NCBI GenBank assembly: GCA_048881705.1
Contig: JBHLSH010000005.1
Coordinates: 19,417 to 83,416 of the forward strand
Source: Candidatus Heimdallarchaeota archaeon
Lineage (GTDB): Archaea; Asgardarchaeota; Heimdallarchaeia; Hodarchaeales; Hodarchaeaceae
Direction of reading: 5' to 3'
DNA length: 64,000 nt
In this document: positions 23,872-31,868 of the stretch, one piece after another
Position numbering within the stretch: position 1 is the first letter of the stretch
Layout of the letters: the number at the start of each line of letters is the position of its first letter
Translations under genes and position numbers: made by a program
Notes under the pieces: model-generated
What the model was told of the DNA's origin: nothing
Databases searched by the model: none
Seen by the model: the letters and a program-made list of their open reading frames with translations, nothing else

Positions 23872-25470
23872 ATGTCTAAGACCGTATGGACAATGACAGT
23901 AGACAGCCAAGATGACGCAATTCAAATCCTTTATTTCAAGGGTGAGCACTGTGCCCCGTGTAAACCCGTGGAGAAGCATTTGAAACGGATAGTTGAAACT
24001 AGTCAAGGAAAAGCCCTTATGACGACCATTGACACGGATAAACATGCTGAAATTGCTTCTCGATACGGTGTCAAACAGGTTCCTCACGTCTTGTTCAATG
24101 AGGAGATAGTGTTAACTGCGGGACAAGCTAGTGGAATGGTGGGTTTCGGTGAATTTGACCAGTATGATTTATTCAACTACCTATTTAACAAGCTGATTGA
24201 GGCCGGGGTTAAAGCGAGCGAAGCAGAACGTGATCGCTGGCGAAAGTTATCGATTATAACAGTATCTGAAAGGTTGATAGATGTAGAAGGAAGTGGTATT
24301 GTAACAAGACCCTCAGTAGGAGATTACGTTCATATCGGGCATCTTCAATCAATCGTAACGTCTTTACTAGCTATTAATCCTTCAGCCAAAACATACCTAT
24401 TTCGTGCGGGAGAGATGGCTGGAAAATTCGGTGCAGCGCAATCTTGGCTAGGACGCTACAACCCGAACATTATGTCGACCAATCGGATGGGTGACCGATT
24501 CAAGGAGGTGTTGAAGGGCTTTCGAGTTCTTTATGGTAAGAATCCCATGGAATCAAAGGTAGCCTCGGAGTTGAACTACACCCAAACCTCTCCATATCAC
24601 GCTACGCTTGAGATGATGGGTTCTGCTCATGCAGTTCGGAACTCCGAAATTGGGCAAGATGTATGTGGGTTCTTGGCTGGAGAGATTTCAGGATTGCTAG
24701 AAGTCACCTTGGGGGAAAAAGCGGCGGTGGTTGAGACTAAATGTTGGGGCCTTGGGCACGATCATTGTGAATTCGATATACGGCTGAATGAAAGCTCAGA
24801 TCACTATTTAGTCCCCTTCTCCAATGCTAAGGAATTTTTTGGAACTGATGATCGTCTTCGTTTTGAGCTTTCCCTAGCTGAAATCTCGAGAAATATGTTT
24901 GACTCGATCTTACGCCGACCTTACGGACTTTTACGACCAGATATTGGGGACTACATCCATATTTCTTCTCTCCAACACATTCTAACCTCATTGAAGTTTT
25001 CGGATCCATTCAATTCTACGCTTCTCTCGTATGCGGGATTACATTATGGACAGATTCTCGAGGACGTAGGCATTATTTCCAGGATTATGACGCGTCGCAA
25101 TCTCAAATACTCTTTTCCTATGGAATTTGATCAGGCATGTGAGGTTCTTGGATATTACTTCAGCACACCTGGAATGATTTATGCACGTATCCACGCAGAT
25201 ATGACCGTTGAGATGGAGGATGATGAAACAGCCATCTTTAAGATGTGGGAAAGCGCCGCCACTTCTGGTATTGATCTTTCGACGGTTGATTTATCCGCGC
25301 TATTTCCTGGAACGGAAAAACCCGCTACCATAAACACATTGGATGATTTCATTGCGGGGTTTATTAACGGTCGATTGGACTTATTGGTTGAGGAAGATGT
25401 GATTGTTCATGAAGCACGGTGTCAGGCTAGCGGTCACCCTTATTGCGAATTCGTAGCGGAGCTAGATTGA
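23872..25470 (+). CDS. Thioredoxin domain fused to two V4R domains
   Basis: CAPC in a Trx fold (GVKQVP); duplicated RPxxGDYxHI...E.xC...G...CEF units. Confidence 0.8.
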   Translation: MSKTVWTMTVDSQDDAIQILYFKGEHCAPCKPVEKHLKRIVETSQGKALMTTIDTDKHAEIASRYGVKQVPHVLFNEEIVLTAGQASGMVGFGEFDQYDLFNYLFNKLIEAGVKASEAERDRWRKLSIITVSERLIDVEGSGIVTRPSVGDYVHIGHLQSIVTSLLAINPSAKTYLFRAGEMAGKFGAAQSWLGRYNPNIMSTNRMGDRFKEVLKGFRVLYGKNPMESKVASELNYTQTSPYHATLEMMGSAHAVRNSEIGQDVCGFLAGEISGLLEVTLGEKAAVVETKCWGLGHDHCEFDIRLNESSDHYLVPFSNAKEFFGTDDRLRFELSLAEISRNMFDSILRRPYGLLRPDIGDYIHISSLQHILTSLKFSDPFNSTLLSYAGLHYGQILEDVGIISRIMTRRNLKYSFPMEFDQACEVLGYYFSTPGMIYARIHADMTVEMEDDETAIFKMWESAATSGIDLSTVDLSALFPGTEKPATINTLDDFIAGFINGRLDLLVEEDVIVHEARCQASGHPYCEFVAELD

Positions 25471-26724
25471 TGATACTCCTGATGGCAGAATTTCCTTGGT
25501 TTGAGGATCATCAATGAGGGCCCGTATCGAGGAAATCGCGAGTATTCCCAGCCCTAGTATGCATACCAATGCGGAAATCGCAAAAAACGGATTTTCTGTT
25601 ATTTTTGAATATGTTTCGATAGACCAAAGAAGTGACCACCAAACTTCTCCAATGTAAACCATACCAAGACCGCCGATTAGGCCTAAAAGTGTATAATCAG
25701 ACCATAATGCAATATCAGTCTCACTGTCCTTTTTGATTCTTAAGACAAGCATAATGCTATAGAATGCAAAGAAAAACGGAACATAGTGCGGATAAAGGAT
25801 TCGATTAAACATCAAGAATATAGTCATCAAGGGAACAATTGCCTCCAAAACCCATCGTTGGGAAATCAAAGGGGATCGAAAGACAAGATACATGAGACAA
25901 ATTGCAAGCAATGTTAGCTGAATTAAAAATGGAAGTAGCGTGGTCGAAATTTCTGTGAAAAAGTATGTATATAACGACATGCTGGGATCTGGTCGGGTCG
26001 CGTGAATCAGAAAGGCATCCTCAATGTATTGCTCGGGAGTAAGAATTAGGAATGGAACGGAGACCATAAGAAATAATGCCCCTGCAATTGCCCAAGTCCA
26101 CAGAACCTGCCATTTCCGTGTTCGAATCCCCCAAATCAAGAGAGGAATCATATATATACCTGCTGTTGGTTTGGTTAGCAGCGCACAAGCGAATCCCACG
26201 CCGCCTAGTATGTAATTGTCATTCAAAATAGCAATAAACGCCATTAAAACAAAAATGAGCATAAATCCTTCATGATAACCTCCGAAAACAACTCCTAGTG
26301 TTGCTGGGTTCAGCAAAAACCAATTCATAGCTAGAAGGGAAATGGTTCGACTTTGGGGGATATTTTCGGTAATTTTAGAGACAAGTAGATAAAGTAAAAT
26401 TCCGTTAATTAGATTACAAATAATTAAAAATATTTTGACTCCTTGCCAAGTAACGTTTTCGATCCCCACTATACCAATCAATGCTGCCAAGGTGTATAAA
26501 TAGAGTGGGGGATATTGTGGCCTTGGAAGTATCTTCCCTTCCGATACAATAGCTCCTATGTCACGGTAAAGGAGTTTTCCTCGCGAAATTTCTTTTGCGG
26601 CTTCAAATTGAAGAACAAAATCCACTGGATTAAAGTATAAGAGCCCAACCACCAAATGTATAAGTAAATTTACAAAAAGGGAGGCCAGCATTCTATGAAA
26701 ATGATTCGTATTGCTCACAGACAT
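25462..26724 (-). CDS. GT-C fold membrane glycosyltransferase (GT87/DUF2029-like)
   Basis: Polytopic; LYRDI, QYPPLYLY, GYHE, ALLTKP, YPHYV. Confidence 0.7.
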   Translation of the reverse strand: MSVSNTNHFHRMLASLFVNLLIHLVVGLLYFNPVDFVLQFEAAKEISRGKLLYRDIGAIVSEGKILPRPQYPPLYLYTLAALIGIVGIENVTWQGVKIFLIICNLINGILLYLLVSKITENIPQSRTISLLAMNWFLLNPATLGVVFGGYHEGFMLIFVLMAFIAILNDNYILGGVGFACALLTKPTAGIYMIPLLIWGIRTRKWQVLWTWAIAGALFLMVSVPFLILTPEQYIEDAFLIHATRPDPSMSLYTYFFTEISTTLLPFLIQLTLLAICLMYLVFRSPLISQRWVLEAIVPLMTIFLMFNRILYPHYVPFFFAFYSIMLVLRIKKDSETDIALWSDYTLLGLIGGLGMVYIGEVWWSLLWSIETYSKITENPFFAISALVCILGLGILAISSIRALIDDPQTKEILPSGVSSI

Positions 26725-27124: not shown

Positions 27125-28504
27125 CTACGCGACTTCGCCGTACAGACGTTTAATTTTGCTTCGCCAAGATAAGAACCCATCGGGACTTCTTGGATAATCT
27201 TCATAGAGATCCCTTGCGTTATTCATTCTGTTAAGGATTCCACGAAATTTGAGAAGTGTCCCCAGCATGCTTCTGCCACGCCATACTCGTGCAAGGTTCT
27301 TTGTGAAACTACCAGCAGATAGCTGTCCCGTGGAATTACCGTATAGGAGATCGTCCTCCCCTAGTATCCGTTTATGAAAAACCTTATTTATGAGTTCACT
27401 GGGCATCGGAACAATAAAATCCTTCATAATTGCCAAAGGAGCGGTTACAGGCCCAATGGTTGTCATAAATTCAACACTGTAATCCCAAAGTCCAGCTTGT
27501 GAGACATCTCCGTTTTCTAATGCCTTAGTAATAGTTTTTGTAGCCATTGCCGCAGCATTGACGCTTATTCCTATTCCCCCACCATCTGTGGGCTTAACCT
27601 GAGTCCCCGCATCACCTATCAACATAAAACCATTCCAAACTAAATTATCCTGTGGTCGTCTCAAAGGAACTGGCCAACCACCACCATGTATGATCTCGGA
27701 TTCTTTGTAAAATCCCTTCACAGATTCCATGAATACTTGAAATTGCTTTTGTGGACTCAAATTGTTGATCTTCATCACTCCTAATCCGACATTCATACTC
27801 CTTGGCCCTCGTGGAAACTCCCAAATATACCCTCCGGGACAAATTTCTTGATCAAACATCAGGCGGATGAATTCGGGAGATTCAATTTCGGTTTCCGTGT
27901 CCCGAAGTTCCCGATAGCATTTACAAATATCTTTTGGATCCAAAAACCGATCCATATAGGTTTTTTCGGGATCTAGATTCCTTCTGAGGAAGGCATTTAT
28001 TCCTGTGGCGTCTATTGTAACTTTTGCAAAGTCTTCCTTAAGCGAATTATCTTTTGATCGATATCGGATCCCCACTACCCTATCCTTTTCCACAATGGGT
28101 TCCTTGACCCTCGTGTCATCAATGAGCTCGGCCCCATAGTCCATGGCGGTATCTAATGTACGCATGCCCATTTTAAAGCGATCAAGGATGACGCCAGTGC
28201 TATTTTTTTCGACGAGTTCAAGTTTTACTTCTCTGTCGGGGGAATATAGCCATGCGCCTTTAACTCGTTGAAGGATTTCATCTCCTTTCGGAGGAGAAAC
28301 CCCTATTATCGATTCAATCTTTTTAAAATGATCAAGGCTTGAGGCATCACCACAAATTTTAACGCCAATATCATCTTTACGTAATCGATCATAAAGGGCG
28401 ACCTTTAATCCATGATGCGCCAGTCCTGCCGCCGCTACAGAACCCGCAGTGCCGGCACCAGCAACGATAACGTCGTAATTGGTCATTTTCCTCACGTTAA
28501 CCAT
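27125..28504 (-). CDS. Geranylgeranyl reductase family FAD oxidoreductase
   Basis: DVIVAGAGTAG, KICGD, IDATG, PGGYIWEFP, LIGDAG.QVKP.DGGGI. Confidence 0.9.
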   Translation of the reverse strand: MVNVRKMTNYDVIVAGAGTAGSVAAAGLAHHGLKVALYDRLRKDDIGVKICGDASSLDHFKKIESIIGVSPPKGDEILQRVKGAWLYSPDREVKLELVEKNSTGVILDRFKMGMRTLDTAMDYGAELIDDTRVKEPIVEKDRVVGIRYRSKDNSLKEDFAKVTIDATGINAFLRRNLDPEKTYMDRFLDPKDICKCYRELRDTETEIESPEFIRLMFDQEICPGGYIWEFPRGPRSMNVGLGVMKINNLSPQKQFQVFMESVKGFYKESEIIHGGGWPVPLRRPQDNLVWNGFMLIGDAGTQVKPTDGGGIGISVNAAAMATKTITKALENGDVSQAGLWDYSVEFMTTIGPVTAPLAIMKDFIVPMPSELINKVFHKRILGEDDLLYGNSTGQLSAGSFTKNLARVWRGRSMLGTLLKFRGILNRMNNARDLYEDYPRSPDGFLSWRSKIKRLYGEVA

Positions 28505-28830
28505 GATGAATGAGATCTTATCAATTGCGCTGCATGAATTTAGTATAACCAGAAACCTCGATTATAAAACCTAGATAATGAACTGAAATTCCCAGTCTGG
28601 TGCAAACATCATCCAAACTCTTTGGTAAAACCTTCTAAAGTTAAACATGGATGTTCCGGGATCTCTCGAAAAAAACCGCTTTAGCATTGCTTTAAGAACC
28701 TGATCCATTAGTTCGCCTGTTTAAAGTTGCATTCTCTTTGATGCGAGAAACGGAAAACAACGTAAATAATTTGATTACGACGTTTACACTTTCCAGTTCT
28801 ATTTACAGTAGTGACAAGAAGAGATAATCC

Positions 28831-30444
28831 ATGGCAACAAAATTACATCCAACAACACAATTCTATCTGTTTCTAGCCCTTCTTATAGGGGTTGTTATTG
28901 GTTCTGGAGGAGGCTTTATCATGTTTTCAATAGTCAACCCTAACCAACCTGCTAGAGAATCAGTGACTTTTGATATTGGAGCTCATCAATGGGGCTTTGA
29001 TCCCAATAGAATTGAGGTAAAGCTCGACGATCACGTCGTCTTGAGATTTTCGAGTAATGCAACAACGGAACCTGCTTACACAAGACACTCAATCATTATT
29101 CAGGCCTATAATATTAGTGTTGATTTACCTGTTGGTCAGATTACAGTTGTTGAATTTGATGCTACTATCCCAGGAGAATTTCTAGGTGAATGTGGTATCT
29201 TTTGTGGGCGAGATCATGCAGCTATGTCTATGACGATAGTTGTAAGCGGATCTGGGGAAGATATTCCTGAACAGGATTTACAACCACTCACCCAACTTAG
29301 CCAAGGTGTTTCGGCTGGAAGTTGGAACAACTCTGACGTGATGGTCATAGTCGAAAGAGAAGCTCGAGCAATATCATTTATTGATGGGAGCACCAATACT
29401 TATCTCGGAAGACTGTCCGGAATTGGCTATCAACCTCATACAGTTGTTTTCTCTAGTAATTTAACCTATGGCTACATCATCGGACGAGGGGGATGGTTTG
29501 TGAAATTCGGTTTGGATGATTTTCAAGCTAAAGGGTGGATAAAGGTCGGCACATCAAGCAGGGGAACCGCAATTAGTAACGATGACAACTATGTACTGAT
29601 AAGTAACTACGAACCTTCTAGTTTTGTAATAGTCGATACGAGAACCATGGAAATTGCCAAAGATTACCAAATCCCGATCCCCTACGATGAAAACGGAACT
29701 ACGGAAGGATCCCGCGTTGCATCGATCATTGATACGCCGAACAACTTGATGGTGGTAGCAATGAAAGATCTAGGTGAAGTATGGGTAATTAATATGTCAG
29801 AACCGAATTTCCCCGTCACAAAGATATTTTACGGTGTTGGAGAGGTTCTTCATGACGCCTTTTTAACTGAAGACGGACGTTATTACTTCCTAGCTAGCCA
29901 GGGGTCCAATTGGATTTGGGTTCTCGATACGGAGACCTTAACAGAGGTAACACGGATTCCTACAGGAGAAAAACCACATCCAGGTCCAGGGGCATTATGG
30001 GGTGATCTGGCCTTTTCCCCATCTGTTGGTGAAGGAAGATTAAACATCTGGAATACCACCTCATTTACGATGCATAGGAATATTACACACGGTGGTCCTG
30101 GATTGTTTATTCGATCATACTCCAGAAATGCTTCCTATCCTTATGTTTGGTGGGATACCATTCTATCGTCAAACCCTGTTGAAAACAGACTAATCCACGT
30201 CCTTGATGCAAGAACAATAGATGATCCTACTCCTCTGATATACGATCTAGATGCAGGAAATGGATCCCTTCATCCTGAGTTCACCTATAATGGAAAATAT
30301 GTCTATGTATCACTTTGGCACGAAAGTAAAGTCCTTGTATACGATGCTTACAATTTCAATGATGGTCCCATCACTTCATTTATTATTACAACGCCAACAG
30401 GGATCTTTAATGCCGGTTTACGTGTCGAGGAAGTAGGATTGTAG
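28831..30444 (+). CDS. Membrane-anchored CuA-type cupredoxin plus cytochrome d1-type beta-propeller (NirS/NirN/NirF family)
   Basis: N-terminal TM; H86...C121-x3-C125-x3-H129-x2-M132 CuA motif; propeller with YQPH203, IGR, SSRG, SRVASI, VLH341D, KPH383PG, GLFI, TPTGIFN matching cd1 nitrite reductase d1-domain motifs; no CxxCH. Confidence 0.8.
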   Translation: MATKLHPTTQFYLFLALLIGVVIGSGGGFIMFSIVNPNQPARESVTFDIGAHQWGFDPNRIEVKLDDHVVLRFSSNATTEPAYTRHSIIIQAYNISVDLPVGQITVVEFDATIPGEFLGECGIFCGRDHAAMSMTIVVSGSGEDIPEQDLQPLTQLSQGVSAGSWNNSDVMVIVEREARAISFIDGSTNTYLGRLSGIGYQPHTVVFSSNLTYGYIIGRGGWFVKFGLDDFQAKGWIKVGTSSRGTAISNDDNYVLISNYEPSSFVIVDTRTMEIAKDYQIPIPYDENGTTEGSRVASIIDTPNNLMVVAMKDLGEVWVINMSEPNFPVTKIFYGVGEVLHDAFLTEDGRYYFLASQGSNWIWVLDTETLTEVTRIPTGEKPHPGPGALWGDLAFSPSVGEGRLNIWNTTSFTMHRNITHGGPGLFIRSYSRNASYPYVWWDTILSSNPVENRLIHVLDARTIDDPTPLIYDLDAGNGSLHPEFTYNGKYVYVSLWHESKVLVYDAYNFNDGPITSFIITTPTGIFNAGLRVEEVGL

Positions 30445-30631
30445 GTATTCCGTTATCCAAACTTGGCTCGTAACGAGCCAGTTTTTCCCTTTTTTCCTAA
30501 TAATACGGGTTGTTTCTTAGCTATGAAAGCGGTACGGTCAGATGCAAGTCCAATCAAGAATGGTAGTGGGAGTTTAACAAGAGAACTGCAAGATATGAAT
30601 CTCAATTTTCCCAAATAAACCAAAAATCCTA

Positions 30632-31744
30632 TTAAATGAACCGCTGCAATGCCTCAATTACTTTGGATTGAGTTTGCTCTCGCTCTTCTAGTTCTCTTTT
30701 GAGGTAATCAATACTGTCAACGGTACTTGGATCCCTATGATTCAACATAGCCAAATAGATACTGATGAAGTCAAACAAGTATGTAATAGACAATAGTTGG
30801 CTAAGCAAGTGGGTCCCCCTAGTATGAATCTCGATGAGTTCGCATTTCGGTTTTACGATTCTCTTGCTGATCTCAAAACGTAAACGAACGTTTGAATGCT
30901 CTGTTGGGAATCGTATAACCAGTACTAGGAAAGGATAATCATTCTTTTCGTATCCTTCCCATCCCACTATATGATTATGGTTCAGTTCTGGTAATTCCTC
31001 AGAGATCGCCAGCATCTTCGAATTCTCGTTGAACTGACACTTAATTCGATTTGCTATGCATCTGTACGGGGCCCAAACAACGGGGATTTTTTGAAATAAT
31101 TTCATGGCAGTATTCTTTGCACTGTTTTCAGGCAAACTAATATCAAGGCGACATTGATCTCGTATATCTCGAAGGATATACAATATTTCATCGATTACGG
31201 TTTTTTGTAAACTTATCAGATCGAATGACTGAAGGATTTTAGCCAAAGCAAAAAAAATGAGTGGAAAGGCTGCTCGGGGCTGAAAACCAGGTGGGATTTC
31301 GAAATACGGTAGTGAGTTCTCCTCAAAAAATCTGGCAATATAACCGCCTGAAGATATCCCTACAACGCGACACCTTTTTTCGAGGGCGAAGAGAAGACAG
31401 GACAGGGTTTCCTCAGTGTTGCCAGAATAAGATACGAAACATACGAGTGTATCTTTACCAGCAAATGTAGGAAGTCTATAATTCCTGGTCACAGTAACGG
31501 GAATTTTAAGTGGAAATATTGCCTTAATATAATCACCACTAACAGCTGAACCTCCCATCCCGCAAATAATGATGTTATTCGGTCTTCCTCCATATAAAAC
31601 TTGGAATCTGTTGGTTTCAATTTGAGATGGAATAGTGAAGTCACGGGAAAGGAGCTCTTCTATCATATCAGGCAGACGGTACACCTGGTTCAACATGTTT
31701 TGGGGATCGTATTCTTTTATTTGAGCCATATTATTTAAATCCAT
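30632..31744 (-). CDS. Bifunctional phosphoglucose/phosphomannose isomerase
   Basis: CGMGGSA, SYSGNTEET, QPRAAF, QFNENSK, PELNHN; start taken at the ATG at 31744. Confidence 0.92.
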   Translation of the reverse strand: MDLNNMAQIKEYDPQNMLNQVYRLPDMIEELLSRDFTIPSQIETNRFQVLYGGRPNNIIICGMGGSAVSGDYIKAIFPLKIPVTVTRNYRLPTFAGKDTLVCFVSYSGNTEETLSCLLFALEKRCRVVGISSGGYIARFFEENSLPYFEIPPGFQPRAAFPLIFFALAKILQSFDLISLQKTVIDEILYILRDIRDQCRLDISLPENSAKNTAMKLFQKIPVVWAPYRCIANRIKCQFNENSKMLAISEELPELNHNHIVGWEGYEKNDYPFLVLVIRFPTEHSNVRLRFEISKRIVKPKCELIEIHTRGTHLLSQLLSITYLFDFISIYLAMLNHRDPSTVDSIDYLKRELEEREQTQSKVIEALQRFI

Positions 31745-31868
31745 GGAGTTCGCTCCGGCGTTGATTTGATAGCAAAGACAGTTACAACAAAAAACATGGA
31801 CCTCATAATGTGTTCTAGGTACTATCTTTCCTTTTTGCATTTTTTTACGGTTATTGTTCTGATGTATT

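Follow-up and report, generated by a model that had tools for sequence, protein, structure and literature searches.

A CuA cupredoxin fused to a d1-type propeller in a Heimdallarchaeota genome, and a family of propellers with differing redox modules

Domain layout and haem pocket

The window considered here is a stretch of 64,000 nucleotides from a Candidatus Heimdallarchaeota archaeon (assembly GCA_048881705.1, contig JBHLSH010000005.1), and coordinates given without a locus prefix refer to it. At 28831..30444 (+ strand) it carries a gene of 537 codons plus a stop, encoding a transmembrane anchor, a CuA cupredoxin and a d1-type beta-propeller in a single chain. No other long open reading frame occupies this site. 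A first-pass annotation, made from the sequence without database searches, had proposed a membrane-anchored, heme-c-free reductase in which CuA serves a haem d1 site. The architecture and the NirS-like pocket of that proposal are borne out below, but haem d1 as the cofactor is not.

The N-terminal membrane helix spans residues 7-34 (28849..28932, +) in the AlphaFold2 (AF2) model, and hydrophobicity is maximal at residues 13-31, in agreement with the anchor recognized earlier. Homologues from Marine Group II (MGII) have a lipobox-like G-C in place of this helix. The Lys4 side of the helix is predicted to be cytoplasmic, which would put the remainder of the protein outside the cell.

The cupredoxin beta-sandwich is a COX2/NosZ-type CuA domain covering residues 44-139 (28960..29247, +), as delimited by Pfam, PDB and lactonase-type NosZ (L-NosZ) matches and by the AF2 strands. 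When the N-terminal part is scanned by itself, it scores 28.1 against Cupredoxin_1 (Pfam cut-off 27) and 24.0 against COX2 (cut-off 22). The PDB matches of the domain are ba3-type COX2 domains (3e-9), and its best curated match is the CuA end of L-NosZ, at 59.7 bits vs a cut-off of 700. The first CuA ligand, His86 (29086..29088, +), lies 35 residues before Cys121, and the others fall in the loop C121-GIF-C125-GRD-H129-AA-M132 (29191..29226, +), which is kept in P0001-P0013 (P0001 being this protein) and in L011. C121 and C125 are the sole cysteines, and CxxCH occurs nowhere in the 537-aa protein; both this lack and the full CuA ligand pattern had been noted in the first-pass annotation. All CuA-fused family members examined (14/14) keep the CuA motif and lack CxxCH. 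Because the motif recurs in all 13 cupredoxin-fused homologues, a chance match is ruled out, and the complete ligand set on a cupredoxin fold predicts a two-copper CuA centre.

The remainder of the chain, residues 166-537 (29326..30441, +), forms an eight-bladed d1-type propeller according to PF02239, Foldseek and AF2. Cytochrom_D1 (PF02239) aligns to residues 166-528 with an E value of 1.7e-58, so that both families expected from the first-pass annotation, COX2/cupredoxin and Cytochrom_D1, were matched. The gene is the only PF02239 match in its genome. The AF2 model has a mean pLDDT of 86.4 and a pTM of 0.78, with pLDDT mostly >90 in the propeller, and its top Foldseek matches are NirS, NirF and NirN, all at ~1e-27 and well above other propellers.

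Pocket residues were mapped by HMMER alignment to Pseudomonas aeruginosa NirS. His203 (29437..29439, +), invariant in 46 family members, is equivalent to the proximal haem ligand His182. His341, in an L-H-D motif (29851..29853, +), is equivalent to the distal His327, and His383, in P-H-P-G-P-G (29977..29979, +), to the distal His369, a position that also provides the second iron ligand of NirF and NirN. R176, R219 and R244 (in VERE, IGR and SSRG) pair with Arg156, Arg198 and Arg225, and Y260 with Tyr245; the histidines and arginines singled out in the first-pass annotation thus fall on their NirS counterparts. His481 (30271..30273, +), in H-P-E-F, is common to NirN, NirF and Thermus NirS, the proteobacterial NirS having Gln, and Arg372 of NirS is replaced by Pro in this family. 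Across the CuA, cytochrome b5, multicopper oxidase (MCO) and cytochrome c forms of the family described below, H203, R219, R244, Y260, L-H341-D, P-H383, R428 and H481-P-E-F are invariant, and position 176 is Arg or Lys in every member aligned.

The distal pair of this protein is of the NirS type, the textbook arrangement for protonating nitrite; at position 341, NirN carries Asp and NirF carries Tyr. Other features point elsewhere. The propeller contains the NirN-type invariants W222, K312, W318, W390, R428, W440, D442 and H481-x-E-F, and its sequence is closer to NirF (6tv2, the best PDB match, E 4.9e-36) and NirN (2.9e-34) than to NirS (4e-18). Three arginines hold the ring A and B acetates in NirS, NirN and NirF, and the Arg at the position of R244 touches oxo or acetate groups in NirN and NirS (bioRxiv 10.1101/2020.01.13.904656).

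These residues bear directly on whether the protein is a genuine copper-d1 nitrite reductase, which would convert nitrite to NO using haem d1 or dihydro-haem d1 supplied by denitrifiers nearby. All mappable NirS contacts to d1-specific groups are kept or conservatively replaced (R/K176, R219, R244, Y260 and both distal histidines), and by Foldseek the fold is indistinguishable from that of d1-binding propellers. The replacement of Arg372 by Pro argues against such an enzyme, as does the genomic evidence on haem supply given below, and overall we consider it very unlikely.

Relatives, gene context and insertion

The gene had been thought to stand alone, but a motif-seeded scan using one genome per GTDB species recovered 384 relatives, a family of several hundred species in which the redox module has been swapped. 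The nearest record, at 94% identity, carries the label Thorarchaeota and the next, at 54%, the label Heimdallarchaeota, in keeping with an Asgard genome. The homologues fall into four groups that have one propeller in common and differ in the redox module attached to it. CuA forms occur in two Asgard records (those labelled Thorarchaeota and Heimdallarchaeota), in MGII Poseidoniales and in Thermofilaceae. Cytochrome b5 forms, in which the b5 domain follows a multi-helix membrane part, occur in dozens of Patescibacteria, in Limnocylindria and in Acidimicrobiaceae; a domain scan matched their multi-transmembrane N-terminus to no known family. Cytochrome c forms are found in Anaerolineae and other Chloroflexota, Bipolaricaulia and Acidimicrobiia. 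In the fourth group, represented by the 746-aa metagenome protein P0014, the propeller is fused to a two-domain MCO module with the HxH motifs HFH114, HTH156, HFH253 and HSH302. This module has Ser instead of the type-1 copper Cys (HSH for HCH), and would therefore be a trinuclear-cluster module that adjoins the haem propeller with no type-1 site of its own. A further variation is seen in P0121 (686 aa), which has a tandem pair of cupredoxins ahead of the propeller, both with the complete CuA motif.

Phylogenetic placement was examined with a tree of 54 propeller domains in which NirS is represented by three references. The new forms make up a short-branched bush, and the NirS, NirN and NirF references form three separate clades, each with 100% support and each on a long branch (1.5, 1.25 and 2.3 substitutions per site, respectively). 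The protein studied here lies outside all three clades. That it does not group with NirN or NirF, and that it keeps His341, agrees with the first-pass annotation; that its sequence is nonetheless nearer to NirF and NirN than to NirS, and that it also falls outside the NirS clade, does not. A tree forcing NirS, NirN and NirF together was not rejected (approximately unbiased (AU) test, p 0.29), and with the classical families on long branches the tree allows the new forms to be sister either to NirS or to NirN and NirF. Taken together, sequence and tree suggest that the CuA, b5, cytochrome c and MCO propellers are a large, previously undescribed group with an interchangeable electron-entry module, apart from the three classical clades and possibly sister to them.

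A haloarchaeal homologue was found on Natrinema thermotolerans plasmid CP031304.1 (L092:7961-9109). It has 34% identity, is unannotated and matches in two pieces, and is possibly a pseudogene. With several key residues missing in the frame read, it was not used as an archaeal reference in the tree. A NirS survey (PMC10999283) mentions a Halobacteriota cytochrome d protein that lacks a c domain, and the plasmid homologue may be this protein.

No neighbour is universally conserved across 77 related loci, the best recurring one being present in 9, but several lineage-specific contexts are informative. In Thermofilaceae, hemerythrin and PNPOx-like genes lie upstream of the propeller gene, and a membrane protein combining CuA with a NapH-like polyferredoxin part, then a further CuA protein, lie downstream. 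Judging from their domains and order, these CuA and polyferredoxin genes appear to encode a chain dedicated to delivering electrons to the product of the CuA-propeller gene upstream of them. In one such locus (L005:4377-6305), the membrane protein has 642 aa, with an N-terminal CuA-type cupredoxin and a NapH/NosR-like polyferredoxin membrane part, and the next gene encodes a CuA protein of 140 aa. Upstream of several cytochrome c forms is a Crp/FNR regulator. Separately, four cytochrome c-type loci (L074:9754-10842 and three others) have, directly downstream, a conserved gene for a polytopic membrane protein of 362 aa that belongs to no known family; NnrS was considered as its identity and discarded, as there is no similarity.

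In eight Patescibacteria loci, a homologous gene is found ~200 bp downstream of the b5-propeller gene. The one representative of this cluster that was scored (L058:4701-5945) is a genuine copper nitrite reductase, NirK (TIGR02376, 303.5 bits vs a cut-off of 296.3). These genomes would then either have adjacent genes for two nitrite reductases or have a propeller that acts on a neighbouring step. A PNPOx-like gene is found near the propeller gene in seven Patescibacteria loci. In all three MGII loci (L013, L014 and L015), the gene is ~1.2 kb from a COX3-COX2-COX1 operon and adjoins a CopD-like gene, the order being CopD-like gene, CuA-propeller gene, one or two small genes and COX3-COX2-COX1. 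The COX1 of MGII has an N-terminal 'choice-of-anchor V' extension.

Some of these contexts would suit a terminal oxidase or an NO-handling enzyme, which would reduce O2 to water or consume NO for detoxification or microaerobic respiration. The MGII copies stand beside an aa3 oxidase operon, and the adjacent NirK of Patescibacteria already converts nitrite to NO, so that an NO consumer would complete the step. The host of the window is aerobic and has no nitrate or nitrite reductase, and cd1 enzymes show cytochrome oxidase activity and can reduce O2 to water. Oxic-preferring bacteria of the candidate phyla radiation (CPR) have also been described as enriched in genes annotated 'nirK, nirS' (PMC12577380). 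On the other side, only ~5 of the 14 Patescibacteria hosts and none of the CuA hosts have NirK, we identified no residue signature peculiar to O2 or NO chemistry, and the distal histidine pair is the arrangement expected for nitrite. On balance, we regard this function as quite unlikely.

In the window itself, the gene is the sole content of a stretch of ~2.0-2.1 kb (28505..30631, no strand assigned) that lies between a geranylgeranyl-reductase gene (27125-28504, -) and a phosphoglucose-isomerase gene (30632-31840, -). In eight other genomes of the same genus, which lack the stretch, the reductase and isomerase genes are ~150-570 bp apart, and the interval here is ~2.0 kb longer. Among 201 sampled genomes of the phylum, the gene was found only in the window genome and one of ten sampled congeners. 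Its absence between the same flanks in congeners identifies a single-gene insertion, most simply explained as a horizontal gain; at the borders of the ~2-kb stretch we found no convincing terminal repeats, nor any convincing target duplications. We looked for partner genes beside it and retained none, the neighbours being the geranylgeranyl reductase, the phosphoglucose isomerase, a V4R-thioredoxin protein, a PIG-U-like protein and an M16 peptidase. Two of these neighbours have features of their own. The gene at 23872-25470 (+) encodes a 532-aa protein with an N-terminal thioredoxin domain and two V4R domains, an unusual combination, and that at 25462-26724 (-) a 420-aa membrane protein with a weak match to the eukaryotic GPI-transamidase subunit PIG-U (E 3e-5, just below the cut-off).

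Haem supply and proposed function

In profile searches of the host genome (91% complete, 7.5% contamination), we found no HemB (ALAD), HemC, SUMT or NirJ. Two candidate traces of a d1 pathway were rejected: the only TP_methylase match is diphthine synthase, and the best NirJ-like protein, a weak match, is MoaA. The same four proteins were likewise not found in the other CuA-type hosts. In 22 further host genomes sampled across the family, NirJ never scored above the cut-off (0/22), and HemB is missing from 18, including every CuA and b5 host. The four HemB-bearing hosts are all of the cytochrome c type; the NirJ-like scores are 99-204 bits in three of them and 434.6 of the required 515 in the other (G019). 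A published survey reports that gaps in the haem pathway are frequent in Asgardarchaeota, MG-IIb, Patescibacteria and Chloroflexota (bioRxiv 10.1101/2021.01.11.426183).

The absence of HemB, HemC, SUMT and NirJ excludes haem d1 of the host's own making, and it is on this point that the first-pass annotation fails. A genuine copper-d1 enzyme would need a steady external supply of d1, which is unlikely for hosts that include planktonic MGII of the oxic ocean and groundwater Patescibacteria. We know of no demonstrated case in which haem d1 is taken up from the environment.

The host nevertheless uses haem. It encodes an A-type haem-copper oxidase (CtaD/CoxB/CtaE, with its own CuA subunit), the haem A synthase CtaA, cytochrome c maturation proteins and SCO1, and this equipment in a genome with no haem synthesis genes indicates that the organism uses haem it does not make. 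Since the host makes no tetrapyrrole, the cofactor of the propeller must be scavenged. Protohaem would have to be imported already for the aa3 oxidase and the c-type cytochromes, and scavenged protohaem is therefore most likely the cofactor of the propeller. We also considered whether an inability to mature c-type cytochromes explains why CuA stands in for haem c, and rejected this for the archaeal hosts, as cytochrome c assembly proteins (PF01578) are present in the window genome, its congener and three MGII genomes. Such an inability would fit the b5 forms of Patescibacteria only.

We give an even chance to the reading that the protein is an extracytoplasmic reductase in which electrons run from cytochrome c through CuA to a haem-bearing propeller, with scavenged haem and with nitrite, or else NO or O2, as the substrate. 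Its topology, direction of electron flow, cofactor and substrate are predictions. The enzyme would be a membrane-tethered oxidoreductase acting on the outer face of the membrane. As in cytochrome oxidase subunit II, the electrons for its CuA centre would probably come from a c-type cytochrome; this donor is likely because the host has cytochrome c maturation and no plastocyanin-type carrier was found in it. CuA would then pass single electrons to the tetrapyrrole at the centre of the NirS/NirN-type eight-bladed propeller, where His203 would be the proximal iron ligand and His341 and His383, together with Asp342, the distal acid-base pair. A small oxidant would be reduced there, nitrite to NO being the first choice and NO or O2 the alternatives. 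The gene probably reached this Asgard lineage as a single-gene horizontal insertion. From the pocket residues, nitrite reduction by the protein is plausible.

Several observations weigh against this reading. Protohaem as the ligand would not readily account for the conservation of the three arginines (Arg or Lys at position 176) that contact the acetate and oxo groups specific to d1 in NirS and NirN. NarG, NirK and NOR were not found in the host genome, and there is accordingly no evident nitrite source or NO sink; NarG is found in two of five CuA hosts, namely the Heimdall host (not the window genome) and one MGII host. The neighbours of the gene in the window are unrelated housekeeping genes, and the NirK beside the b5 forms may point to a role for the propeller other than nitrite reduction. 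Finally, the MCO fusion P0014 and the oxidizing relatives NirN and NirF/NirC would allow electrons to flow in the reverse direction.

Reversed flow is central to a serious alternative, that the protein is a tetrapyrrole-processing or salvage enzyme. The bound tetrapyrrole would then be a substrate that is oxidized or modified, the CuA, b5, cytochrome c or MCO module would be the electron exit, and the activity would aid haem auxotrophs. The closest sequence similarity, to NirF and NirN, is in keeping with this, as are the NirN-type invariants W222, K312, W318, W390, R428, W440 and H481, although both of those proteins lack the distal His341, a hallmark of NirS. PNPOx-like genes recur nearby, and the PNPOx-like superfamily includes haem-binding and haem-degrading proteins; however, neither a haem transporter nor another salvage gene is a conserved neighbour in the 77 loci, and the informative contexts (NirK, Crp/FNR, NapH-like and the COX operon) point to N-oxide or oxygen respiration. 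The family occurs mainly in lineages that do not synthesize tetrapyrroles, but this association with auxotrophy is one of raw counts, not corrected for phylogeny. An oxidase-type MCO module without a type-1 site is fused in P0014, and both characterized non-NirS relatives are tetrapyrrole-modifying oxidoreductases that hand electrons to haem c (PMC13168839). Weighing these points, we think it unlikely that processing or salvage is the function.

Relation to known systems

To our knowledge, all characterized d1-type propeller enzymes (NirS, NirN, and NirF with NirC) work with haem c and haem d1. Here the same pocket is coupled to a predicted CuA centre in an organism that makes no haem. We tentatively suggest, while leaning against it ourselves, that the CuA-, b5-, cytochrome c- and MCO-fused propellers are a fourth widespread class of d1-type proteins serving organisms that make no tetrapyrroles, either as nitrite, NO or O2 reductases with scavenged haem or as converters of exogenous tetrapyrroles. 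If this is true, many 'nirS' calls in metagenome-assembled genomes of Asgard archaea, MGII, Patescibacteria and Chloroflexota refer to a different enzyme with a different cofactor chemistry. Since automatic pipelines label these genes nirS, the denitrification potential inferred for Asgard, MGII, CPR and Chloroflexota genomes may mislead or may hide new chemistry. The family also offers a handle on how haem auxotrophs equip extracytoplasmic haem enzymes, and is a natural example of how modules are exchanged at the point where electrons enter a respiratory enzyme.

Neither a CuA-d1 nor a b5-d1 architecture is described in the full-text literature we searched, for the former in line with the first-pass annotation; the nearest accounts are PMC8756737 and PMC10999283. 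The latter, a survey of NirS, reports the enzyme only from bacteria and Hydrothermarchaeota and mentions a Halobacteriota outgroup lacking haem c (PMC10999283), and a CPR study lists 'nirS' from automatic annotation (PMC12577380). New here are the family-wide module swapping, the survey of hosts, the insertion, and the NirK, COX and NapH-like contexts.

The protein shares with NirS (EC 1.7.2.1; 1nir/1bl9 from P. aeruginosa and 1aof from P. pantotrophus) the eight-bladed propeller, the proximal and both distal histidines, the equivalents of Arg156, Arg198, Arg225 and Tyr245, a fused N-terminal domain for one-electron entry and a (predicted) extracytoplasmic location. It differs from NirS in that CuA takes the place of haem c in the entry domain and a membrane anchor is present, in its similarity of ~21-25% and its position outside the NirS clade, in the changes of Arg372 to Pro and Gln to His481, and in a host that cannot make haem d1. 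NirN (6rtd), a dihydro-haem d1 dehydrogenase, is, by profile and together with NirF, the closest classical relative and has the same H-x-E-F motif and two-domain layout, but it has haem c and an Asp at position 341, and its substrate is a d1 precursor, which the host here is unable to produce. NirF (6tv2) binds a tetrapyrrole between two histidines and in some species is a membrane-anchored periplasmic protein, and it introduces the keto groups of d1 together with the cytochrome NirC (PMC13168839). Unlike the protein described here, NirF has no fused redox domain, carries Tyr at position 341 and Ile at position 244, and sits on a very long branch of its own.

On the copper side, the CuA domain has the same H-x34-C-x3-C-x3-H-x2-M pattern and cupredoxin fold as the CuA of ba3-type COX2 and of NosZ, including clade III L-NosZ. 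A CuA domain and a catalytic beta-propeller are also combined in NosZ, but there the domain order is reversed and the propeller is a seven-bladed CuZ type rather than an eight-bladed d1 type, and the match to L-NosZ falls far short of its cut-off, as given above. The closest described combination is that of the Chloroflexi C1-C2-NirS with an extra N-terminal cupredoxin (Schwartz et al. 2022, PMC8756737), which also join a copper domain and a d1-type propeller in one chain. Those proteins retain their cytochrome c domains and were described as NirS, whereas in the heimdallarchaeal protein copper is the sole redox module besides the propeller.

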